From an uncultured Gemmatimonadales bacterium (GTDB lineage Bacteria > Gemmatimonadota > Gemmatimonadetes > Gemmatimonadales > GWC2-71-9), in NCBI GenBank assembly GCA_963730185.1, contig CAVSQW010000005.1, forward strand, positions 101,777 through 165,776: a DNA stretch of 64,000 nucleotides, in the 5' to 3' direction. Positions 3,494 through 38,544 of this stretch are shown in pieces. The position numbers and the translations under genes are program-made. Under the pieces are notes generated by a model. It made no database searches. It had not been told where the DNA came from and saw only the letters and a program-made list of their open reading frames with translations. Position 1 is the first letter of the stretch, and the number at the start of each line of letters is the position of its first letter.

Positions 3494-4405
3494 CTAACGA
3501 ACGCGCATGCCTCGGGCTGGATCCCAGTGGAGGGCTTGGGGATTCCGGGGCAGCGGCGCCCCGCTCGCCTGGTCGATGGTGACGCCGTTGGGGGTGTCGG
3601 GCGGACAGATCGCGATGTAACGGGCGTAGCCGCCTACGCCGCCCTGGAGCTTGGGATAGCCGATCGAGACCAGGCACCCGGTGGGTGGCACCTGATCCAG
3701 GTTGGCGACCCCTTCGGCCTGGGTATACCCGTGATGCATCAGCCAGGACTCGCCCTCGAGCGTCGCGGTGGTGTCGGTGTCGAGCGGCTCGTGACCATGC
3801 ATCAGGATCTTCCGCTGCTCATGGAGGAACTGGAGCGCCGCCAGGGAGACGCCAGGAAAGGGGCGCTCCTCGGCCAAGCCCGGCTCGGACCACCGCTTGG
3901 ACCAGTCGGAGCGGACGAACACCACGGAGCCCTCCGGGATCCGCCCGTGTCGGGCTTCGAAGGCCTCGATGTCGGCGACAGACAGGTGGTATCCCGGCGC
4001 CTTGACCAGCTGATCCACGATCGAGATCACCACCAACGGACGGACGGCGAAGGTGGCCGGCAGCTCGTCGATGGCGGGATAGTTCGGGTCCCAGTGGGCC
4101 GGCGGGTCGAGCTGGGTGCCCAGCTGATCGGTCGGGAGGAGGTAGCGGGTGGCGGCGAAGCCGTCCGCCTCGTAGGTGTACGGCGTCCCGGTCTTGGGGT
4201 TGACCGTCTGGCCAAAGGTCGGGTCGCCGAAGCCGGGCCAGACCGGAATGGTCGGCGTGATGGTGTGGGTCAGATCGAGGTAGCGGGCCTGACGAAAGGA
4301 CTGCTGGTAGACGTCCCAGAGCGACGCCGGCGCCGCGGACGGGGCCGCGCAGGCCGCCGTCAGGGTCGCCATCGCCGCCAGCGCCACCAGCCCGTGCTTG
4401 CTCAT
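3494..4405 (-). CDS. cyclase family (kynurenine formamidase-like) lipoprotein
   Basis: DLTHTI..IPVWPG, GTQLDPPAHW and EGVANLDQVP motifs; lipobox TAAC. Confidence 0.88.
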   Translation of the reverse strand: MSKHGLVALAAMATLTAACAAPSAAPASLWDVYQQSFRQARYLDLTHTITPTIPVWPGFGDPTFGQTVNPKTGTPYTYEADGFAATRYLLPTDQLGTQLDPPAHWDPNYPAIDELPATFAVRPLVVISIVDQLVKAPGYHLSVADIEAFEARHGRIPEGSVVFVRSDWSKRWSEPGLAEERPFPGVSLAALQFLHEQRKILMHGHEPLDTDTTATLEGESWLMHHGYTQAEGVANLDQVPPTGCLVSIGYPKLQGGVGGYARYIAICPPDTPNGVTIDQASGAPLPRNPQALHWDPARGMRVR

Positions 4406-26157: not shown

Positions 26158-28170
26158 TCAGAACGGGCAGAGCTGCTGCGCCGACCCGCCCGCATTGGTG
26201 TAGACGTAGTACAGGAACCCGCCGTGGTCCACGTTGGTGCAGGTGAGGAACCCGCCGTTCCGGACGATCGCCGCGTAACCGCCGGTCTTCGCGAAGGTCG
26301 CCTCCGAGAGCGTCAGGGTGCCGTCCGCGGTGACGTGCAGCGTCGCGGTGCTGTTGTTGCCGCCGAACCAGGCCTGAGAGCCGGCGTTGCTGAAGAGCAC
26401 GTGATCCAGGCTGTTGGCCGCGGCCGCCGTGCCGATCTCGATTCCCTGCCAGTAGCCGATCAGGTCCTGACCGCCGAGGAACAGCACCTCGTTCCCGGCC
26501 GTGCCGTCGGCCGTGAGCGAGCCACCCTGATTGACCACCAGGCTCGCGTCCTGCGCGAACTGGAGCTCGACCCCGGCGTCGATCGTGAGCGGGGCCTGGA
26601 CGAACGTCCGATCGGTCACGTAGAACGGGGCGTCGAAGTCGTGCCAGGCCTGCGCGGTGGTGACGGCGTCGGTGTTCCCGAAGGTGACCCGGACCATGTC
26701 CTCGGCGTTGCCGGCGATGGTGTTGTTGGCGGAGATCGCCCCAGCCCGGGTGGGGTGGACAATCATCGCCCGGGCGTTGGCGACGAAGGTGTTCTGGTCG
26801 AAGCCGGCGATGTCGCCACCCGAGGGGACCCAGAGCCCGTAGTGGCCGCTGCCGGAGAACATCGTGTGGGTGAAGACCGCCTTGCTGTTGCCCTCGAGAT
26901 AGACCATCGACCGGGAATCGGAGGCCCCGGTCCACGCCTTGCTCCCGCCGTTCTCGAAGTGGACGTAGTCGAACTGGTTGCCGGTCGAGGCCGTCGCGAT
27001 CTTGAGCCCCTGCCAGTAGCTGGGCAGATTCTCGACGCTGGTGAAGGTGATCGGCGAGGCCGCGGTCCCGATCGCGGTCAGGGAGCCGGCGTTGTCGACG
27101 ATGATCGAGACGTCGGTCCGCAACGTCAGCACCGCGCCGGCCGCGATCGTCAGGTCGGCTTGGATGAAGGTCCGGTCCTGGATCTCGTACGGCACCTCGA
27201 GCGCCGGCCAGGTCTGGGCCGTGGTCACCGCGTCGGTGTTCCCGAAGGTGACCCGGACCACGTTGGCCGTGTTGCCAACGAACGAGGTACCCCCGCCGAT
27301 GAAGTGAACGGCATTGGGAGGGACCCAAGCCGCCACGGCATTGTCCCGGAGCGTGTTGCCGACGAAGGTCATCTCGGCATCGGCGTCGAGGGTGATGCCC
27401 TGGCCGCCGCTGTTGGCGATGGTGCTCTGCTGGATGTCGACCAACGAGCTGCCGTCGAGGAAGAGGGCCGAGGTCGACTGATTGCCTCCAGTCCAGCCGG
27501 CGGAGCCGCCGTTCTCGATGGTCACGTAGTGAAGGGCGTTGGCGGTCCCCTGGCTATCGACGAAGTGAATCCCTCGCCACCGGGCCACCGGATCGATGCT
27601 GGTGAAGGTGATCGGCGAGGCCGCGGTCCCGACGGCGTTCAGCCGGCCGCCGGTGGCGATGGTGAGGTTCCCGCTGGTCCCGAACTCGATCCGGACCCCG
27701 GCCGGCACCGTCAACGTCCCCCCGCTCACCGTCAGCGCCGTGGTCACCTGGTAACAGACGCCCTGGGTCAGGGTGGCCCCGTTCGCCACGGTGGGGGCGT
27801 CGAGGGGCACGCAGCCGGTCAGCGTCAGACTCACGGTGGCGCTCTTGGTCGGATCCGCGGCACTGGTCGCCGTGATCGTCACCGAGCCGGGGAGGAGGGC
27901 CGTGACCAGGCCGGTCTGGCTCACCGTCGCCCGGGCCAGGTCGCTGCTCGACCAGGTCACCGTCTGCGACGCGCTCGAGGGGGCGACCGCCGCGCTCAGC
28001 TGAAGGGTGGTTCCCACGGCGACCGAGTTGTTCGGCGCCGAAATCGAGACCCCGGTGACGCCGGTGTTCCCGGAGGGACCGGTGGTGGTGGCGGTCTTAC
28101 AGGCCGCGACCGACAGGCAGGCGCCCGCGATCGCGAGAGCGGACAGGGACTGGCGGACTCGACGGGCCAT
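26158..28170 (-). CDS. lipoprotein with Ig-like (Big_2) domain and repeated beta-helix modules
   Basis: VAAC lipobox; VTWSSSD..ATVS.TGLVTA; three units with GTAASPITFTS/WxGI; near-identical DNA at 27037-27071 and 27598-27632. Confidence 0.8.
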   Translation of the reverse strand: MARRVRQSLSALAIAGACLSVAACKTATTTGPSGNTGVTGVSISAPNNSVAVGTTLQLSAAVAPSSASQTVTWSSSDLARATVSQTGLVTALLPGSVTITATSAADPTKSATVSLTLTGCVPLDAPTVANGATLTQGVCYQVTTALTVSGGTLTVPAGVRIEFGTSGNLTIATGGRLNAVGTAASPITFTSIDPVARWRGIHFVDSQGTANALHYVTIENGGSAGWTGGNQSTSALFLDGSSLVDIQQSTIANSGGQGITLDADAEMTFVGNTLRDNAVAAWVPPNAVHFIGGGTSFVGNTANVVRVTFGNTDAVTTAQTWPALEVPYEIQDRTFIQADLTIAAGAVLTLRTDVSIIVDNAGSLTAIGTAASPITFTSVENLPSYWQGLKIATASTGNQFDYVHFENGGSKAWTGASDSRSMVYLEGNSKAVFTHTMFSGSGHYGLWVPSGGDIAGFDQNTFVANARAMIVHPTRAGAISANNTIAGNAEDMVRVTFGNTDAVTTAQAWHDFDAPFYVTDRTFVQAPLTIDAGVELQFAQDASLVVNQGGSLTADGTAGNEVLFLGGQDLIGYWQGIEIGTAAAANSLDHVLFSNAGSQAWFGGNNSTATLHVTADGTLTLSEATFAKTGGYAAIVRNGGFLTCTNVDHGGFLYYVYTNAGGSAQQLCPF

Positions 28171-28253
28171 GCGGAACCCCTTCGTAGGCGTGACGCGAAA
28201 CCATGGTGGGCGGCGGCCGGCCAGCTGGCCGGCCCGACCGCCCTGCTCAACGG

Positions 28254-28282
28254 AGAACGCGAAACGCCAGGGAAGTCCGCCA
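28254..28282 (-). promoter_or_regulatory. degenerate copy of ECF43-like promoter motif
   Basis: minus strand TGGC-N19-CGTTCT, 84 bp upstream of the Ig/beta-helix gene start. Confidence 0.35.
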
Positions 28283-30016: not shown

Positions 30017-31490
30017 TCAGCGCCGACCTTGCCCTCCGGACACGGATCGATGCGCCGGGCGGATCACTCCGACGTTGCCCTCGACCTCGATCGTCGTGCC
30101 GAAGGGCCGTGAGAGCCTGGCGAGGGTGCCGAGGATCTGGCGCGCCACGTCGGGCGGCGCCATCCGGGGGACGCCCTTGCTCGCGGCCGAGTCAGCGACC
30201 CCCAGCTCCACCGGGTAGAGCCGGATCTCGGCCACCTGGCCCCCCTCGTACCGGCTGACCGCGATCACACTCCGGTACCAGATGGGCTCGCCGTCGCCGC
30301 CGAAGTATTTCTTCCGCCACGACTCGTGGAACTCGGCGTCCACCATGGTGCTCGGATCCTTCTTGAACTGCTCGTACAGGTCTTTCGCGATCGGCTCCAA
30401 GCTGCTGACCTGGAAGAAGAAGTTGCCCAAGCTGTAGAAGATCGGGCGGCCCCGGTAGACCTCGATACCGCGGAGCTGGTGGGGTCCATGCCCGACGAAA
30501 GCGTCGGCCCCGTTGTCGATGGCGGCGTGGGCGAGCGCCGGGAGGAAATCGGGGGGCTGATCGCTCCAGTTGCCGGGCTCGTGGGCATGAATCGTCGCCA
30601 CCAGGAAGTCGGCGTTGTCCTTTCCCTGGCGGATCGCCGCCAGGATCTCCCGCACGTCCACCGAGTCGGCGTCATAGCTGAACCGGACCTGGTCCTCGAT
30701 CGCCGGGCTGGCCCGGTACGACACGCCGAACAGGCTCAGGTCGGTGGGACTCGAATCGGCCGGTGGAAGGAAGGATCCCTTGGGTTGGGCGTCGTAGATC
30801 GCGCGGAGCGAGCGGAGCATCTCGGGCGAGACCAGCACCCGGCGGCTCGTCCGGAGGGCATCGATGCCGGGGCGGCCCGGGGCCTCGCGCAGGGGATCCA
30901 TCGAGCGCGAGATCGGGGTGAAGCTCGAGGCCATCGAGACCAGGGCGACGGTGCCTTGCGGGGTTGCCAGGTAGCGGGCCGCACGGGCGGCGGCCCGGGT
31001 TTCGCCGGTGCCCGCGTGGACGATCCCGGCCTCGTCCAGCCGCCGATCCGTCTCCCGCATCCCCTCGAGACCCCAGTCGGTCGCGTGATTGTTGGCCCGG
31101 GCCACCAGGTCGAAGCCGTTCCGGGCCAGATCCCCGATCACGGCCGGGTCGCTCCGGACCCAGAGGCCGCCGTACTCGGCCTGGGGGTATCCGGTGAAGG
31201 TCCGCATGTCGATCGCGGTGGACTCGAAGTTTCCGAAGGTCACGGTGGCCCGCCGGAGCAGGTCGATCGCTTCCGCCAGCCCGCCGGTTTTGGCCGGGGC
31301 CACGGGGTGGGTCTGGATGAGATCGCCCACGGCGGCCAAGGTGAAGCCATCGGGGACGCCGAGCCGGAGGGGCCGGACGGTGTCGCGGGCGGCCATGGGG
31401 GCCCTGGGCGTCGGCCTGGACCAGTGGCAGGACGAGGGCGCCTCCCAGGAGGAGAGCCGCGAAGCGAATGGCGCGAACCGAACCGATCAT
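30017..31490 (-). CDS. CapA family metallophosphoesterase, frameshift in homopolymer 31397-31401
   Basis: AVGDLI, GNFES, ANNHATDWG, IHAHE, GHGPH and YSLGNF; signal peptide lies in the adjacent frame. Confidence 0.88.
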
Positions 31491-31816: not shown

Positions 31817-31981
31817 CTAGTTCGCCGAGAGCCTGAACGATGGCGTGTTGGCCTGCGACGCGGCCTCGAGGCTCTTCTTGGCCTGGAGGGCCTGGGCTTC
31901 GTCGTCCTGGGGCCCGACCAGATTGGCGCATCCGCTCATGGCCAGCGCTGCCGCCACCAAAGCCACAACTCGCTTCTTCAT
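31817..31981 (-). CDS. small lipoprotein-like peptide, copy 1 (54 aa)
   Basis: MKKRVVALVAAALAMSGCANLVGPQDD...LSAN*; lipobox-like MSGC; G-rich RBS; conserved paralogue at 34217-34321. Confidence 0.8.
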   Translation of the reverse strand: MKKRVVALVAAALAMSGCANLVGPQDDEAQALQAKKSLEAASQANTPSFRLSAN

Positions 31982-32032
31982 GGAACCCCCTCGGATTGGG
32001 TTTGGGCCGGCCCACACGGCCGCCACCTGGTT

Positions 32033-32061
32033 AGAGCGTGATCCGGGGACCGAACCCGACA
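32033..32061 (-). promoter_or_regulatory. putative ECF43-like promoter of peptide 1
   Basis: TGTCGGG-N16-CGCTCT; same motif and spacing at 34373-34401 and 34580-34608. Confidence 0.7.
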
Positions 32062-32076
32062 CCGGCCCGGCCCCGG

Positions 32077-32106
32077 TTGCGGACCCTCGGAACCGGCCCG
32101 TACCTT
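32077..32106 (+). promoter_or_regulatory. putative sigma70 promoter of ECF gene
   Basis: TTGCGG-N18-TACCTT; both hexamers retained in copy 2 (34417-34446) while the spacer diverges. Confidence 0.55.
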
Positions 32107-32128
32107 GAGCAAGCATCCAGTCGATTCC

Positions 32129-32680
32129 ATGAGCTCGGTCGCCACCCTCTTCGATCGCTCCGACGCGGGCGACTCGGCCGCCGCCGGTCAACTCTTCGCC
32201 GCGCTGTACGAAGAGCTCCACCAGCTGGCCGAGCGGCAGCTGCGTCGGGACGGCGGCGCCCTGACGCTGGGGACCACGACCCTGCTCCACGAGACCTATC
32301 TCGCCCTCGCCGACCGGGAGGCCGGTGCCTTCCCGGATCGGGCCCGCTTCCTGGGCTACGCCGCCAAGGCGATGCGGAACCTGATCATCGACTACGCCCG
32401 GGCCTGCCGAGCCTTGAAGCGGGGGGGCCAATTCGAGATCACCCAGATCGGCGCCCGGGAGTCGCCAGCCGACGCCGGGGACAGCGCCGAGCTCGAGCGA
32501 GTGGCCGACGGTCTGACTCGATTGGCAGCGGTCGACCCTCGGCTCGCCGAGCTGGTCGACCTGCACTTCTTCTGCGGCTACACCCTGGTGGAGATCGCGG
32601 CGCTCCGGGGCGTGACCGACCGGACCGTCCAGCGCGACTGGCGCAAGGCCCGAATGCTGCTCGAGGGTCTCCTCGACTAG
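32129..32680 (+). CDS. ECF sigma factor, ECF43-like (kinase-associated)
   Basis: LYEELHQLA, TLGTTTLLHETYL, AMRNLIIDYAR, LKRGG and RTVQRDWRKAR motifs. Confidence 0.92.
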   Translation: MSSVATLFDRSDAGDSAAAGQLFAALYEELHQLAERQLRRDGGALTLGTTTLLHETYLALADREAGAFPDRARFLGYAAKAMRNLIIDYARACRALKRGGQFEITQIGARESPADAGDSAELERVADGLTRLAAVDPRLAELVDLHFFCGYTLVEIAALRGVTDRTVQRDWRKARMLLEGLLD

Positions 32681-32779
32681 ATCAGATCGGGCCACCGGCG
32701 CGAGCCGGATGGCGGGCTGGCGATGATCCTTTCGCTCCGGGAATGGTGGGGACGAATGACGAGGGGCCGGCGAGGTGCC

Positions 32780-32800
32780 ATGACACCGATGGACCGAGAT
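32780..32800 (+). pseudogene. 7-codon stub of duplicated Ser/Thr kinase
   Basis: ATGACACCGATGGACCGAGAT (MTPMDRD) matches kinase start at 34637; preceded by decayed motif TGGC-N19-CGCTCC (32710-32738). Confidence 0.7.
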
Positions 32801-32811
32801 CGGGACCTGAT

Positions 32812-34245
32812 TTACCGCAGATGACGCCGAGGGTGCTTCGGCGGCAGGGTCGGCCCGAGCTCGGACCGAAGCCAGCGAACCACCGTCTCACCCACCCGGC
32901 CCAACGTCCTCGGCTCCTCGAAGACGTGCCCGGCTCCCCGAATCACCACCCGCGTGGCGCGGGAGAGGGTCCGGCCGAGGTCGCGGTTCATCGCCGCGAC
33001 CTCGCGGTCGCGCTGCCCGACGACCAGCAGGCACGGGCACCCCACCCGCGCCCGACTTCCCGCCAGGTCGATCCGGCCGCTTCGGGCCACCACAGCGGCG
33101 ATCCGACGCGGCTCGCGCGCCGCGGTCTCCAGCGCGGCCGCGGCTCCGGTGCTGGCGCCGAACAGGACGATCCGAGGGCACCCTGGAACGGCCGCGTCCT
33201 GGGCCCATTCCACCACCCGGCTCAGCCGTTCCGTGAGGAGGTCGATCTCGAAGCGATGGCAGCCCGTCTCGCCGTCGGCTTCCTGCTCCGGCTCGGTCAG
33301 GAGGTCGCCTCGCAGGGTGGCCCACCCGGCCAGGCGGAGGCGCCCGGCCAGGTATCGGTTCCGGTAGCTCCTGCGGCTGCTTCCACCGCCGTGAACCAGA
33401 ATGACCAGGCCGTTCGGGCGGCCGGTTGGGAGGCCGAGATCGCCGGCGAGCCTGCCGACATCGTCCCGGAGCACCACGGATACCGGTTGCTCACGGGGCT
33501 GGTCGGAGGCGGTCGGCCCGGCGACTGCCTCAGCCGCCACAGGGACGGCCGGTGCCCCGACACCACCCAGAGACCGAAGCACGTCCTGGTCCGACACCGG
33601 CTCGAACCGCTCATACCAGTCCGAGACGGTGCCGAACGGCTCCGGCGTGGCCGCCGCAACGACCTCGTCGAAGCAGCCCGCCACCGACTCGACCCCGGCC
33701 GGTGCAGCCACCGGCACGGCCGCGATGAGCCGCCCAGGCCGCCGCGATCGGAGCGCCGCCGCCACCGCCCGAAGCGTGGCGCCGCTCGAGAGCCCGTCAT
33801 CGACGACGATACAGGTCTTGCCGCGGAGCTCCGGCAAGGGCCGCCCGGCCCGGTAGCGTTGGAGCCGCCGGGCCAGCTCCCGTCGCTCCCCAGCCAGCAC
33901 CATCCGCTCGACGGCTCGAGGAATCCCGACGAACGACGCCACCCCGTCTCGCACCGGCCGGCGCCGCCCCTCGGCGATGGCGGCAAACGCTACCTCCTCG
34001 ATCCCGGGCACCCCCAGCTTCCGGGCCACCAGGACCTCGAGCGGCGTGCCTAACCCTCGGGCGATCGGCACCGCCACCGGCACGCCGCCGCGGGCCAGAC
34101 CGAGCACCACGACGTCCCCGCGGTTGGCCCAGCGGGCCAGTAGCCGGGCGACCGCCTCGCCGGCCGCCGCCCGATCGTCGAACAGCGCGCCGACCGGCAA
34201 GGCAGCGTCCAACCAGCTAGTTCGCCTGGAGGTGGGCTCCGTCAT
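32812..34245 (-). CDS. phosphoribosyltransferase fused to dienelactone-hydrolase-like alpha/beta hydrolase (true start possibly TTG at 34212)
   Basis: FDDRAAAG, LGLARGGVPVA and IVVDDGLSSG (PRT); HGGGSSR, GASTG and HVFEEP (hydrolase). Confidence 0.88.
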   Translation of the reverse strand: MTEPTSRRTSWLDAALPVGALFDDRAAAGEAVARLLARWANRGDVVVLGLARGGVPVAVPIARGLGTPLEVLVARKLGVPGIEEVAFAAIAEGRRRPVRDGVASFVGIPRAVERMVLAGERRELARRLQRYRAGRPLPELRGKTCIVVDDGLSSGATLRAVAAALRSRRPGRLIAAVPVAAPAGVESVAGCFDEVVAAATPEPFGTVSDWYERFEPVSDQDVLRSLGGVGAPAVPVAAEAVAGPTASDQPREQPVSVVLRDDVGRLAGDLGLPTGRPNGLVILVHGGGSSRRSYRNRYLAGRLRLAGWATLRGDLLTEPEQEADGETGCHRFEIDLLTERLSRVVEWAQDAAVPGCPRIVLFGASTGAAAALETAAREPRRIAAVVARSGRIDLAGSRARVGCPCLLVVGQRDREVAAMNRDLGRTLSRATRVVIRGAGHVFEEPRTLGRVGETVVRWLRSELGPTLPPKHPRRHLR

Positions 34246-34321
34246 CCTGGGGCCCCACCAGATTGGCGCATCCGCTCATCGCCACCACGGCCGCCACCAA
34301 CGCGGCAACCCGCTTCTTCAT
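34217..34321 (-). CDS. small lipoprotein-like peptide, copy 2 (34 aa)
   Basis: MKKRVAALVAAVVAMSGCANLVGPQDDGAHLQAN*; GGAGG RBS. Confidence 0.75.
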   Translation of the reverse strand: MKKRVAALVAAVVAMSGCANLVGPQDDGAHLQAN

Positions 34322-34372
34322 ATGACCTCCCCTGACCCGGTTGTGGCCGGCCCGCACGGACAGCACTGAGAT

Positions 34373-34401
34373 AGAGCGGAATCCCGGCCCCAAACCCGAC
34401 A
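34373..34401 (-). promoter_or_regulatory. putative ECF43-like promoter of peptide 2/PRT operon
   Basis: TGTCGGG-N16-CGCTCT. Confidence 0.7.
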
Positions 34402-34468
34402 CCGACCCGAGCCCGGTTGCGGGACCGTGGAATGGTCCCGTACCTTGAGCCAAGCAGGACCCGATGCC

Positions 34469-34550
34469 ATGAACCCGGTCGCAACGCTCTTCGATTTCTG
34501 CGGCCACCGGGTGGAAGGCGCGGATGCTGCTCGAGGGCCTCCTCGACTAG
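34469..34550 (+). pseudogene. internally deleted copy of ECF sigma gene
   Basis: MNPVATLFD (cf. MSSVATLFD) joined via ttctgcggc..ggtgga to KARMLLEGLLD*; most of the gene is missing. Confidence 0.8.
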
Positions 34551-34579
34551 GCCGGGTCGCGCGACGAGCCCGGGCCGAA

Positions 34580-34608
34580 TGTCAGGCTGGTGATGATCCT
34601 TTCGCTCT
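34580..34608 (+). promoter_or_regulatory. putative ECF43-like promoter of kinase
   Basis: TGTCAGG-N16-CGCTCT ending 29 bp before the ATG. Confidence 0.7.
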
Positions 34609-34636
34609 GGGAGTGGGAGGGAGCCGGCGAAGTGCC

Positions 34637-37447
34637 ATGACACCGATGGACCGCGATCTCTGGGCTCGCGTCGAGCCATTGCTCGGGGAGGCGATGGAGC
34701 TCGCCGCCGAAGAGCGGGAGCCGTGGCTCGCCCGGCTTCGTGAGACCGCGCCCCAATTGGCTCCCTTCGTCGAGGCGCTGCTGGAGCAGGAGTCCGGTCC
34801 TCGCGCCGCGTGGCTCGAGGGCGACGTAAGCCGGCTCCTCGGTGATCGCCCCGGTCTGGCCGGGCAGCCGATCGGCAGCTACCGGCTCGAGGCCCCGATC
34901 GGTCACGGCGGGATGGGGTCCGTCTGGCTTGCCTCCCGAAGCGACGGCCAGTTCCAGCAAGAGGTGGCGATCAAGCTGCTCAACGTCGCCCTGGTGGGCC
35001 GAGCCGACGAGCAGCGGTTCGTCCAGGAACGCCGCATCCTCGCGCTGCTCGAGAGCCCCCGCATCACCCGGCTGATCGATGGCGGCGTCACCGGCGACGG
35101 GCTGCCGTGGTTCGCCATGGAGTACGTCGACGGGGAGCCGATCGATCAGTACTGCGACACCCGCGCGCTCCCGATCCCGAAGCGGCTCGAGCTGTTCGCG
35201 GCGGTCTGCGAAGGAGTGCAGTACGCGCACCAGCGGCTGGTCGTGCACCGCGATCTCAAGCCTTCCAACATCCTGGTCGCGAAGGACGGCCAGCCCAAGG
35301 TGCTCGACTTCGGCATCGCGAAGCTGCTCGATCCGCTGGCCGGCCCGGCCGAAGGCATGACCCGCACCGGCCTCTACCTCATGACGCCGGAGTATGCCGC
35401 TCCCGAGCAGGTGCGCGGGCAACCGATCAGCGCCGCCACCGACATCTACGCGCTCGGCGTATTGCTCTATCGACTGCTCGCCGGCGTCGCGCCGTACGAC
35501 GTCCGGGGCGAGACGCTGCTCGAAGTCGAGCGGGCGATTTGCGAGACGGAGCCGCCGGATCCATCGAGTACCTTCGGGACCCGGCGGGATCGGGCGCAGG
35601 TAGACTCGAAGGGTGCGCCAGGAGACGGAGTCGCGGGCGACGCTTCGACCGAGCGGGCGGTACCGGTCGTCGACCAGGCCGACCCCCGAGAGCGCGCCCG
35701 GCTCCGAAGCTCGTCACCGGAACGGCTCCAGCGCCTGCTGCGCGGTGATCTCGACCTCATCGTCCGGAAAGCGATGCGGAAGGAACCCGATCGCCGGTAC
35801 GTGTCCGCCGCCGCGCTCGGTGCCGACGTGCTGAACTTCCTCGAAGGCCGGCCGGTGATCGCCCGGCCCGACAGTGCCGGGTACCGGTTCCGTAAGTTCG
35901 TGCGACGCAACCGGGTCGCGGTGACGGCGGCATCGACGACCCTGCTGGCACTGATCGCCGCGACCGCCTTCTCGACCGCAAAGATGCGCGAAGCCCGACA
36001 GCAGCGCGACGCCGCGCGGCAGGACGCGCGACGGGCGCAGGCGACCGCTGAAGTGCAGTCGGTCGTCCTGAGCGATGCGCGTGGACCGGGGGGACGCCTG
36101 CTTACGGCCGTCGAGCAGATCGAGCTGGCGGAGCGGATGATCCTTCGCAAGTACGGCCCGGAGCCGTGGCTCGCGAGCGACCTTCTCGCCGGTCTTTCGG
36201 AGCGGTTGTACGACCTCAGTGAACGGGAGAAACAGCGAGCGATGCTCGGCCTGGCCAGCCGACTTGCCCTCGACGCCGATCTGCCGTCACAGCTGGCCCG
36301 CGCCGATTGCGATCGGGCGTACAGCTTCGTTTACGACGAGATGTTCGACTCGGCGCAGGTGGCGCTCGCCGAGGCCACGAGTGCGCTAGGCCGGGCTCGG
36401 CCACCGCTTCCGGAGGCCAGGACTGTTTGTCTCGAGGCGGAAGGCGCGCTCCTCCTGGCCCAAGGGCAGCCGGATTCCGGGCTGGTCGCTCTGCGCCGTG
36501 GGGCCGCGATTGCCCAATCCACCCCCGGTCAACCCCGGTACCTCTCGATCCTCAACGACATGGCCGGGGCGTTGCGCGCGCTCGGGCACACCCGCGATGG
36601 CGCCGGCTACCAGCGCCAGATTCTCGCCGAGCTGGATTCGACAGGCTTCGCGGGGACCGAGATCCTGGCCAACGTCGCGACCTTCCTCGTTTCATCGCTC
36701 AACGAGCTGGGCGAGCTGACAGTGATCGACTCCGTGTCGCGCGCGCTCGTGAGAGAACGTCGCGACCTGTTCGGCACCGATGGCGGGGGCAGCTCGGTCG
36801 CGTTCCTGTATGGGTTCGGCAAGTTGCGGCTGGGGCAGCTCGATTCCGCGGACGTTTGGCTCGGCCGCGCGCGCCAGGATACGACCGAAGGATACGGCAT
36901 CAGCGACCTCCTTCCGCCGTTCCTCACCCAGCTCCGGCTCGAGCAGCACCGCCCCATCGAGGCCAGAAGCGCCTTCGCGGGCCTTCCCACCGGCACGCTG
37001 GGACGCCGCGTCAATTCGGCCTGGCTCGGCGCCTGGCTCCGACGCGAGGAAGGTGATCGTCTCGCGGCCCGCGCCCTCGAGGACAGCCTTCGCGTGCTGT
37101 CCGCCGAAGGCCTCAAGCCGGTGCTGGCCCTGCCGCTGCTCAGCGTCGCGGAATGGCGCTTGGCCGGGGGCGAGTTCGGAGCGGCGGACTCCCTGGCGGG
37201 GCTCGCGCGGACCGCCGCCGCCGTCGACTCGATCGCCCTGTCGCAGAGCGCGTGGGTCGGCCGGGCCGAGCTGATCCGAGCCCGCGCCCGGGCCGCCCTG
37301 GGCGAGGGACCGGGCGCTCGGGAGGCGGCGAGCCACGCCGTCATCGCCATCGACCACGCGTTCGGCACCCGAAGTGCGCTCGCCGCCGAAGCGCACGCGC
37401 TGCGCGACTCGCTCACCCGCGTCGGAGTGCGCCCACCCTCCGACTGA
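34637..37447 (+). CDS. Hanks-type Ser/Thr kinase with hydrophobic segment and TPR-like helical C-terminus
   Basis: GHGGMGSV, VAIK, HRDLKPSNIL, DFG, TPEYAAPE and DIYALG; AVTAASTTLLALIAATAFS segment; Ala/Leu-rich helical repeats. Confidence 0.93.
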   Translation: MTPMDRDLWARVEPLLGEAMELAAEEREPWLARLRETAPQLAPFVEALLEQESGPRAAWLEGDVSRLLGDRPGLAGQPIGSYRLEAPIGHGGMGSVWLASRSDGQFQQEVAIKLLNVALVGRADEQRFVQERRILALLESPRITRLIDGGVTGDGLPWFAMEYVDGEPIDQYCDTRALPIPKRLELFAAVCEGVQYAHQRLVVHRDLKPSNILVAKDGQPKVLDFGIAKLLDPLAGPAEGMTRTGLYLMTPEYAAPEQVRGQPISAATDIYALGVLLYRLLAGVAPYDVRGETLLEVERAICETEPPDPSSTFGTRRDRAQVDSKGAPGDGVAGDASTERAVPVVDQADPRERARLRSSSPERLQRLLRGDLDLIVRKAMRKEPDRRYVSAAALGADVLNFLEGRPVIARPDSAGYRFRKFVRRNRVAVTAASTTLLALIAATAFSTAKMREARQQRDAARQDARRAQATAEVQSVVLSDARGPGGRLLTAVEQIELAERMILRKYGPEPWLASDLLAGLSERLYDLSEREKQRAMLGLASRLALDADLPSQLARADCDRAYSFVYDEMFDSAQVALAEATSALGRARPPLPEARTVCLEAEGALLLAQGQPDSGLVALRRGAAIAQSTPGQPRYLSILNDMAGALRALGHTRDGAGYQRQILAELDSTGFAGTEILANVATFLVSSLNELGELTVIDSVSRALVRERRDLFGTDGGGSSVAFLYGFGKLRLGQLDSADVWLGRARQDTTEGYGISDLLPPFLTQLRLEQHRPIEARSAFAGLPTGTLGRRVNSAWLGAWLRREEGDRLAARALEDSLRVLSAEGLKPVLALPLLSVAEWRLAGGEFGAADSLAGLARTAAAVDSIALSQSAWVGRAELIRARARAALGEGPGAREAASHAVIAIDHAFGTRSALAAEAHALRDSLTRVGVRPPSD

Positions 37448-37459
37448 ACGCCTGGTGGC

Positions 37460-38053
37460 TCACAAGCCGGTCGTCGCGGACGAGTCGGATACCTCCCGCT
37501 CGAGGCGAGCCAGCCCGGCGAGCTCGCGAGTGGCCCGGCGGTGGGACACCACGGCCCACGTCATTGCCGCAGCCGTCACGGCCGCCGCCGCCACCCAGAC
37601 CGCGCCCGACCGCCCCGCGCCCGTCCCGGGCCAGCGCGCGAACGCCGCGAGCGCGGCGACCTCCGCCCCGACCAGCCCTAGGGTGAACCACGCCGCCTCC
37701 CGCCGCCGGACCAGGCGCTTCCGGAGGAGCGCGAGATAGGCCGCTGGCGTGGCGCCGAGGGGCCGCCAGATCCGGCGCCGGTTCCAGAGGGTGAAGAGCC
37801 AGACCACCAGGGTGTGGGCGGCGGCCGCGATCGCCCAGCCGGTGGCCAGCACGCCGGGGCGGGCGGCGAGCAGCACCACCGGCACCATCACCGCAATCGT
37901 CAATCCGATCTCGAGGAGCAGCGTGAGCCGCAACCGGGCGGAATCGCGGTCGACCCGCTCCCGCACCGACCGGAGGTCGATCGGCGGCGCGCCCGCACCG
38001 CTCTGCCAGAGTCCGGCCCACTCGGTCCAGATCGCGTCGTCGCCGTTTGTCAT
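37460..38053 (-). CDS. membrane protein, putative anti-sigma factor
   Basis: W..LWQS N-terminus, about four hydrophobic segments, ATGA-coupled to the upstream ECF. Confidence 0.65.
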   Translation of the reverse strand: MTNGDDAIWTEWAGLWQSGAGAPPIDLRSVRERVDRDSARLRLTLLLEIGLTIAVMVPVVLLAARPGVLATGWAIAAAAHTLVVWLFTLWNRRRIWRPLGATPAAYLALLRKRLVRRREAAWFTLGLVGAEVAALAAFARWPGTGAGRSGAVWVAAAAVTAAAMTWAVVSHRRATRELAGLARLEREVSDSSATTGL

Positions 38054-38544
38054 CCGTCCTCCCGAAGCAACTCCCGGAGCGCCTGCCGCGCCCGCGTGAG
38101 TCGCACCGCCACGTTGTTCTCGGTGAGCCCCAAGATCTCGGCGATCTCCCGGGTGGTGAGCCCCTCGAGGCTGAGCGTCACCACCTGGCGCTGCCCCAGG
38201 CTGAGACACTGCACGGCGCGGTGGAGCCGCTCCCGGTCCAGGGCGGCGGTCGTCTGGGAGTCGGGACCGGGCGACCGATCCCGGACCTCGGGGTCGAGCT
38301 GGGTCGTCTCCCGGCGGCGGAGCCGGTGGGTCAGGCCCCGGTTGTGGCCGATCCGGAAGGCCCAAGTCCGCTCGGTCGACTCTCCCCGGAACGACGGCAG
38401 CGCCCGCCAGATGGCGAAGCAGATGTCCTGGAACAGGTCCTCGGCGTCGTGGGCGTCGGCGCCGTAGGCGGACGCCAGACGCCGGAGCGCGGCACCATGC
38501 TCCGCGAGGATCCGCTCGAACCGCGCCTCGGCCGGCTGGTCCAT
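38050..38544 (-). CDS. ECF RNA polymerase sigma factor
   Basis: DAEDLFQDI, SFRGES, WAFRIGHN and EIAEILGLTENNVAVRLTRAR motifs. Confidence 0.93.
   Translation of the reverse strand: MDQPAEARFERILAEHGAALRRLASAYGADAHDAEDLFQDICFAIWRALPSFRGESTERTWAFRIGHNRGLTHRLRRRETTQLDPEVRDRSPGPDSQTTAALDRERLHRAVQCLSLGQRQVVTLSLEGLTTREIAEILGLTENNVAVRLTRARQALRELLREDG

Follow-up and report, generated by a model that had tools for sequence, protein, structure and literature searches.

A candidate lipopeptide and phosphoribosyltransferase-hydrolase output cassette beside an ECF43-type sigma factor and its receptor kinase in an uncultured Gemmatimonadales bacterium

Extracytoplasmic function (ECF) sigma factors that carry a Thr-rich motif in place of the usual DAED and are partnered by a Hanks kinase have been described as EcfP/PknT in Vibrio parahaemolyticus (PMC8999054, PMC13147305) and as EcfK/PknS in Xanthomonas citri (PMC13147305), both sigma factors being of the Sigma70_ECF-domain type. 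Here we analyse a locus of the same architecture in a 64,000-nt stretch of DNA (the window; assembly GCA_963730185.1, contig CAVSQW010000005.1, positions 101,777 to 165,776 of the forward strand) from an uncultured Gemmatimonadales bacterium. Its sigma factor likewise combines a Sigma70_ECF domain with a Thr-rich motif, and its kinase shares with PknS and PknT an N-terminal extension, one transmembrane (TM) segment and an outer domain that resembles tetratricopeptide repeats (TPR). The locus differs from these systems in its host phylum, Gemmatimonadota, and in its putative targets, which are a lipopeptide, a phosphoribosyltransferase (PRT)-hydrolase and peroxidase-like lipoproteins, as against type VI secretion or polymyxin genes in the EcfP and EcfK systems. 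PMC13147305 names the input sensed by PknS as future work; the word “lipoprotein” does not occur in it, and its passages on EcfK/PknS and EcfP/PknT mention no small lipoprotein.

The locus contains one ECF43-type sigma factor, one PknS-like TM/TPR kinase, two small peptide genes, pepA and pepB, and a PRT-hydrolase gene (Table 1). With a probability of roughly 0.55, we posit that these genes represent an ECF43 sigma/receptor-kinase module, partly duplicated here, together with a sigma-driven output cassette made up of promoter, lipopeptide and PRT-hydrolase. Support for this reading comes from the separation of the peptide-linked PRT-hydrolases on their tree, from the closer co-divergence of the peptide with the PRT-hydrolase than with kinase tail or sigma factor, and from the duplication with its reciprocal decay. 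A preliminary description of the locus had proposed a quorum-sensing-like loop; it overlooked both the duplication and the PRT-hydrolase, the most constant partner of the peptide.

The sigma factor matches PF07638 (Sigma70_ECF), the domain criterion for ECF43 in the supplement of PMC7826278, with 132.8 bits against a cut-off of 21.1, and TIGR02999 with 169 bits against 126. It carries GTTTLLHE, so that the TTTLLHE in place of DAED noted in the preliminary description is borne out, and Thr49-51 occupy the usual DAED position in sigma 2.2. By analogy with QTTA, the consensus given in PMC13147305, and with STTA (PMC13147305, PMC8999054), Thr50 is the likely phosphosite. The sequence thus conforms to ECF43, with kinase adjacency altered by duplication: the four closest sigma homologues (71-74% identity) have the kinase at +1, whereas here a mere kinase stub stands at +1 and the full kinase lies 2 kb downstream behind an ECF remnant.

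In the kinase, the GHGGMG, VAIK, HRDLKPSN, DFG and APE motifs are all intact, and among solved structures PknS (9EED) comes nearest, with E 9.7e-46 over residues 7-288, N-terminal extension included. The long TPR-like tail and single hydrophobic segment reported earlier hold as well. The best window for the segment is residues 427-445 (Kyte–Doolittle hydropathy 1.9), and the tail, which has no Pfam match, TPR families included, is modelled by AlphaFold2 from a 69-row alignment as an all-helical solenoid with a predicted local distance difference test (pLDDT) score of 95.4. Foldseek matches of this model are TPR proteins (best E 1.6e-6). Following a single TM segment, the solenoid is presumably extracytoplasmic, and two Cys residues that are invariant in 69 homologues could form a disulfide. 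Five related loci (L053, L055, L065, L088 and L112) also contain, directly downstream of the sigma gene, a stand-alone 74-80-aa gene that copies the N-terminal helical extension of the kinase (E ~1e-6 to the window kinase), each preceded by an ECF43-type promoter motif; such proteins might serve as decoys or feedback inhibitors of sigma-kinase docking.

Comparison of the window DNA with itself reveals two duplicated blocks, 31878-32155 against 34221-34495 (78% identity over 279 nt) and 32645-32801 against 34515-34658 (77% over 157 nt). Copy 1 consists of pepA, the full sigma gene and the 14-codon kinase stub; in copy 2 pepB is accompanied by the complete kinase gene and by a sigma remnant of 82 bp. 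The PRT-hydrolase gene sits between the two copies, so that the stub, this gene, pepB and the remnant all separate the sigma gene from the full kinase. The duplication would have left one working copy of each gene, pepA and the sigma gene from copy 1 and the kinase from copy 2. Two divergent lipobox peptide genes are thus present as previously reported, but they are duplicates of each other rather than independent peptides, a possibility that we reject. The CANLVGPQDD that they share, the LxAN at which both end and two of the three promoter-like motifs go back to this one local duplication and are not independent evidence. The mature part of pepA has 37 aa; pepB (34 aa, 17 of them mature) is pepA minus 20 codons in frame, and the 29 first codons that the two share include 19 identical, 6 synonymous and 4 non-synonymous ones. 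It keeps the signal peptide, lipobox and terminal AN, having lost the helix and the motif Arg.

Table 1. Features of the locus, with positions counted from the first letter of the window.
Feature	Position	Strand	Basis
pepA: full-length 54-aa lipoprotein with signal peptide, lipobox Cys18, Ala-rich helix and C-terminal RLSAN	31817..31981	-	member of unannotated family
ECF43-type promoter-like site, TGTC-N19-CGCTCT, 80 nt upstream of the pepA start	32033..32061	-	motif; position weight matrix (PWM) score 23.9
ECF43-type sigma factor, 183 aa, GTTT replacing DAED	32129..32680	+	PF07638, TIGR02999
Kinase stub, 14 codons, left over from the duplication; spacer motif decayed (PWM 0.2)	32780..32824	+	self-comparison
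PRT (TT1426-like) and alpha/beta-hydrolase (dienelactone hydrolase (DLH)-like) fusion, 462 aa, TTG start	32812..34200	-	second gene of peptide operon
pepB: pepA duplicate minus 20 codons in frame, upstream of the PRT-hydrolase gene	34217..34321	-	self-comparison
ECF43-type promoter-like site, 80 nt upstream of pepB, with the genome's highest PWM score (30.3)	34373..34401	-	motif scan
Remnant of second ECF copy: start, central fragment and end fused by deletions	34469..34550	+	self-comparison
Weak promoter-like site (PWM 6.2) upstream of the kinase, with the consensus boxes	34580..34608	+	motif scan
936-aa Hanks Ser/Thr kinase with a helical extension at the N-terminus, a catalytic domain, a single TM segment (~427-445) and a TPR-like solenoid of ~480 aa	34637..37447	+	motifs, hydropathy, model

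Judged from its sequence, pepA belongs to a real, conserved and unannotated peptide family. Its basic N-terminus, hydrophobic core and lipobox Cys are those of a lipoprotein; no Pfam or NCBIfam family matches it above cut-off, its matches to named lipoprotein families all lying below that threshold, and no Atlas family names it (best Atlas score 0.89). Six homologues occur in a set of 80 loci retrieved for the similarity of their sigma factors; profile searches yielded first 17 proteins and later 69 representatives (50% clustering), of which 61 are 48-76 aa long. Almost all retrieved proteins shorter than 120 aa end in Asn (71 of 76, with four longer matches left out and a search profile biased towards such an ending). 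The curated alignment A3 has 63 rows, partial, extended and off-pattern matches having been left out; it shows no variation at the lipobox Cys (63/63), at one Pro, at one Leu or at the final Asn. Of the 63 peptides, 58 match a C-terminal [RK][LIV][AS]xN, most often in the form [RK][LI][AS]xN, and the middle is variable; mature lengths range from 32 to 49 aa (median 39). The family is sparse, with members in 5 of 401 genomes of the organism's own family (own genome included) and 15 of 401 of the sister family, these sets being samples in which many genomes are incomplete. A six-row profile run across the phylum with a limit of E 0.01 gave matches in 63 of 401 genomes. Two of these matches, in the own genome and in G015, are full-length and most others cover the signal peptide only; one weak match, in G307, later proved to be a family member. 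The literature accessible to us, which falls short of most subscription papers, describes neither this peptide family nor a ligand of an ECF43 kinase.

The motif TGTCRGG-N16-CGCTCT, said earlier to lie upstream of both peptide genes and the kinase, is indeed found at all three places, against 0.02 occurrences expected in the window; none of 100 shuffles reached three, and the whole 5.27-Mb genome has only these sites. The kinase site is weak, however, when scored with a PWM that reads TGTCGG-N15-ish-TT-x-CGATCT and was built from 30 sites near homologues of the sigma factor, the window contributing none. Scores of at least 13 occur 67-88 nt upstream of the start in 15 of the 20 peptide genes scored (motif TGTC-N19-CG(A/C)TCT), compared with 4 of 2967 starts that have a ribosome-binding site and ATG on the other contigs of this genome. 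The three top-scoring sites of the genome are those of pepA and pepB and one before a CCP_MauG lipoprotein gene on another contig, C8 (L289:390-2129, G000:C8). That site scores 21.9, and the gene, which encodes 580 aa with one CxxCH as against ~455 aa in relatives, may be frameshifted. Of 29 loci in relatives with sigma and kinase genes in tandem, 11 have the motif at the corresponding position before the kinase, a count that is partly circular since such sites trained the matrix. Because it also precedes peroxidase-like and other larger lipoproteins, both in relatives and in this genome, lipoproteins appear to be ordinary targets of ECF43 sigma factors. The −35 element TGTC agrees with the GTC predicted for ECF43 from Proteobacteria only (PMC7826278 supplement), whereas CG(A/C)TCT, or more broadly CG(A/C/T)TCT, differs from the predicted −10 element CAG. 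From the position of these sites we infer that the window sigma factor reads TGTC-N19-CG(A/C)TCT, and the peptide gene is probably switched on by the adjacent sigma factor.

Sites of this type were also seen before other genes. In the window, a Big_2 and beta-helix lipoprotein gene (26158-28282, minus strand) has a weaker promoter-like site (14.0) ~110 nt upstream and is a possible target. At L117 and L152 an ECF43-type promoter precedes what we take to be a lanthipeptide-like precursor, adjoining a presumably LanC-like gene. Hairpins in 5' untranslated regions were observed and not used as evidence.

The PRT-hydrolase ties the peptide to a second gene. Its PRT domain matches the TT1426-like PRTase 1WD5 (E 3e-27) and its hydrolase domain matches 2O2G (E 1e-39); the phosphoribosyl pyrophosphate loop and the Ser/Asp/His positions are kept, and the hydrolase has no signal peptide. 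The fusion lies directly downstream of the peptide in 18 of 19 loci where the DNA continues, being missing in G900, with G767 cut. The 17 peptide-linked PRT-hydrolases split from 6 unlinked alignable ones with FastTree support of 1.0, two sequences with internal stops having been dropped, and so form a clade of their own under an ECF43-type promoter. Neither a peptide nor a sigma gene was found near seven more distant PRT-hydrolases or near the second paralogue of this genome (L216, G000:C15:172607-173917), which has an internal stop between its domains. PRT and DLH fusions are common in Actinomycetota. When metagenomes were scanned with the PRT-hydrolase, all but one of the 39 loci obtained (38) were short generic matches, and no use was made of them.

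This tight arrangement could also suggest a leader peptide acting in cis, by ribosome stalling, to couple PRT-hydrolase translation to lipoprotein export, on the model of SecM and TnaC. The peptide almost always ends a few bases upstream of the PRT-hydrolase, whose start is often TTG or GTG, the last residue before its stop is fixed, and its mature length is near that of the ribosomal tunnel. We nevertheless consider such a role unlikely: the copy that leads the PRT-hydrolase gene, pepB, is the one that lost the motif, the free copy, pepA, having kept it; G900 has the peptide without a PRT-hydrolase; and G011 holds a tandem duplication of promoter and peptide, independent of the one in the window, in which each copy has its own promoter (L229:1081-1702). 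The retention of the motif in the copy detached from the PRT-hydrolase gene fits action of the peptide in trans.

Searches led by the peptide gave 20 loci in 19 other genomes, arranged in at least six gene orders. An ECF43 sigma factor, a related kinase or both lie within ~8 kb in 18 of these 20, where linkage in G011 is deduced across two contigs, that in G791 spans 6.5 kb and the second locus of G898 has only a kinase fragment; without the five loci first found through the sigma factor, the count is 13 of 15. The two exceptions, G015 and G307, have the cassette with neither sigma nor kinase gene in the fetched DNA. The expectation that small peptide genes accompany ECF43-kinase pairs is therefore upheld when one starts from the peptide, but not when one starts from the sigma factor: of the 80 loci with an ECF homologue, 6 include the peptide and 74 have none within 4.5 kb, short flanks that may undercount. 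A small divergent lipoprotein at every ECF43 pair was accordingly rejected, there being none at the six other paralogues of this genome.

Linkage to sigma factor and kinase raises the possibility of a tethered ligand, in which the C-terminus of the sigma-induced lipopeptide, [RK][LI][AS]xN-COOH, would dock as a built-in ligand in the groove of the periplasmic TPR solenoid and tune kinase activity, closing a positive or negative feedback loop or monitoring lipoprotein trafficking in the manner of RcsF and NlpE. Like RcsF, NlpE and LpoB, such a peptide would be an anchored lipoprotein with a flexible linker able to reach an inner-membrane protein, although with 37 mature residues pepA has no folded domain and no similarity to them above cut-off. 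The lipobox of the peptide and the single TM segment and invariant Cys pair of the kinase would place both partners in the periplasm, the solenoid matches peptide-binding TPR folds, and the near-fixed C-terminus is set against a variable middle. The TPR region of PknS restrains its kinase, and PMC13147305 gives no known ligand for it. A second, unrelated type of peptide points the same way: among peptides with an ELEERI leader, 3 of the 5 whose core begins R[LV][AV]xN lie behind this promoter as against 1 of 47 for other cores, in loci that are few and related. RLAxN might be a TPR-binding epitope that two or more unrelated kinds of precursor in these regulons have in common.

The kinase tails tell against such a ligand. 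Peptide-linked tails fall into at least four clades and are often less than 30% identical to each other while the peptide motif stays the same, and 6 of the 10 kinases in the tail clade of the window kinase have no peptide in the fetched DNA (two of them on short contigs). Peptide identity between pairs of loci follows that of the PRT-hydrolase (rho 0.60) more closely than that of the tail (0.21), the sigma factor (0.22) or the catalytic domain (0.05), over 9 loci giving 36 non-independent pairs, one kinase lying 7 kb from its peptide. The covariation of peptide and TPR domain as cognate pairs, proposed earlier as a check, is thus not seen in this small sample. Together with the sparse occurrence at sigma loci and the G015 and G307 cassettes, these results make the tethered ligand a possibility that we hold with considerable doubt. 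Should it prove true, no earlier peptide ligand would be known for the ECF43 kinase class, and the candidate is a tractable one, since the peptide to be synthesised has 37 residues and the domain of 480 residues is well modelled.

The version of the preliminary description, a diffusible autoinducer that is exported and sensed by the kinase in a quorum-sensing-like manner, seems to us the least probable of all. A small exported peptide, a common promoter and a TPR receptor would suit it, and a precursor that is exported and ends in a short conserved core, the TPR fold as possible receptor and the putatively auto-regulated peptide gene recall Phr-type signals and the RRNPP systems Rap/Phr and PlcR/PapR. 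There, however, a diffusible, processed peptide meets a cytoplasmic TPR receptor with which it covaries; here the TPR domain is predicted to be extracytoplasmic and is fused to a kinase, no genes for import or maturation recur, and the invariant lipobox Cys implies membrane anchoring. No protease or exporter recurs among the peptide loci, the hydrolase lacks a signal peptide, the core shows little kin-specific variation and no visible pherotypes, and the two peptides are duplicates. A lipid-anchored peptide would hardly act in this way unless cut free.

Returning to the output cassette, we suggest the following course. An outside signal would reach the TPR solenoid and relieve its restraint on the kinase, as inferred from PknS; the kinase would phosphorylate the sigma factor at its GTTT motif and so permit RNA polymerase binding, as EcfP and EcfK suggest; and the sigma factor would transcribe pepA, the pepB-PRT-hydrolase operon, weakly the kinase, and, elsewhere, the di-haem cytochrome c peroxidase-like lipoprotein gene. 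The peptide, made as a membrane-anchored lipoprotein, would act in trans as an envelope effector whose C-terminal motif may dock on a periplasmic protein, and the co-inherited PRT-hydrolase would act in the cytoplasm, the cassette being part of an envelope or oxidative response. Phosphorylation, promoter use, lipidation and docking are predictions here. Promoter, peptide and PRT-hydrolase may constitute a portable unit that came to lie next to several ECF43/kinase pairs unrelated to each other. Even if pepA is no more than an output gene, the analysis defines a lipopeptide family so far without annotation, a promoter consensus that ECF43 sigma factors of Gemmatimonadota are likely to use, and a putative regulon of lipopeptide, PRT-hydrolase and peroxidase-like lipoproteins, all in a soil phylum that is abundant and for the most part uncultured.

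Several observations weigh against this proposal. The promoters are assigned by position alone, with a matrix trained around ECF homologues, and any of seven ECF43 paralogues in the genome could read them. pepB has been retained in frame, with synonymous change exceeding non-synonymous, despite its loss of the motif. A terminal motif this strict calls for a partner, and the TPR solenoid is the sole conserved extracytoplasmic protein in the loci, which favours the tethered ligand. On a quick 81-row tree of kinase tails, with truncated and open-ended kinases left out, peptide presence requires 7 changes, a value as low as which was reached by 14 of 500 shuffles; four of nine peptide-linked tails share one clade (support 96), with a fifth on a long branch beside it. 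Peptide-linked kinases thus appear mildly clustered.

The ELEERI-leader peptides form a separate, widespread family, unrelated to that of pepA. Those with the leader ELEERI[AT]P and the core R[LV][AV][AS]NH[NM]E (L067:141-320 and 3503-3685, L076:6382-6570, L259 and L260) are not lipoproteins and have the RLAxN motif in common with the lipopeptide; at L067 and L260, at least, a stand-alone TPR gene follows. They are part of a large unannotated family of tandem peptides with an ELEERIAP leader and short variable cores (L261-L288, L276 left out), often beside genes that by inspection look GAF-domain-like and SARP/BTAD-like. The family occurs in 53 of 331 genomes of the order, a tally that includes G089, whose locus was left out of the analyses, and does not occur in this genome.

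Elsewhere in the window, a CapA/PGA_cap-family gene (30017-31490, minus strand) has its signal peptide in a frame other than that of the mature domain, with a run of C at ~31395, a frameshift or a sequencing error. On the other side, convergent with the kinase (37460-38544, minus strand), lies an unrelated canonical ECF sigma gene (164 aa) followed by a gene for an anti-sigma-like membrane protein.

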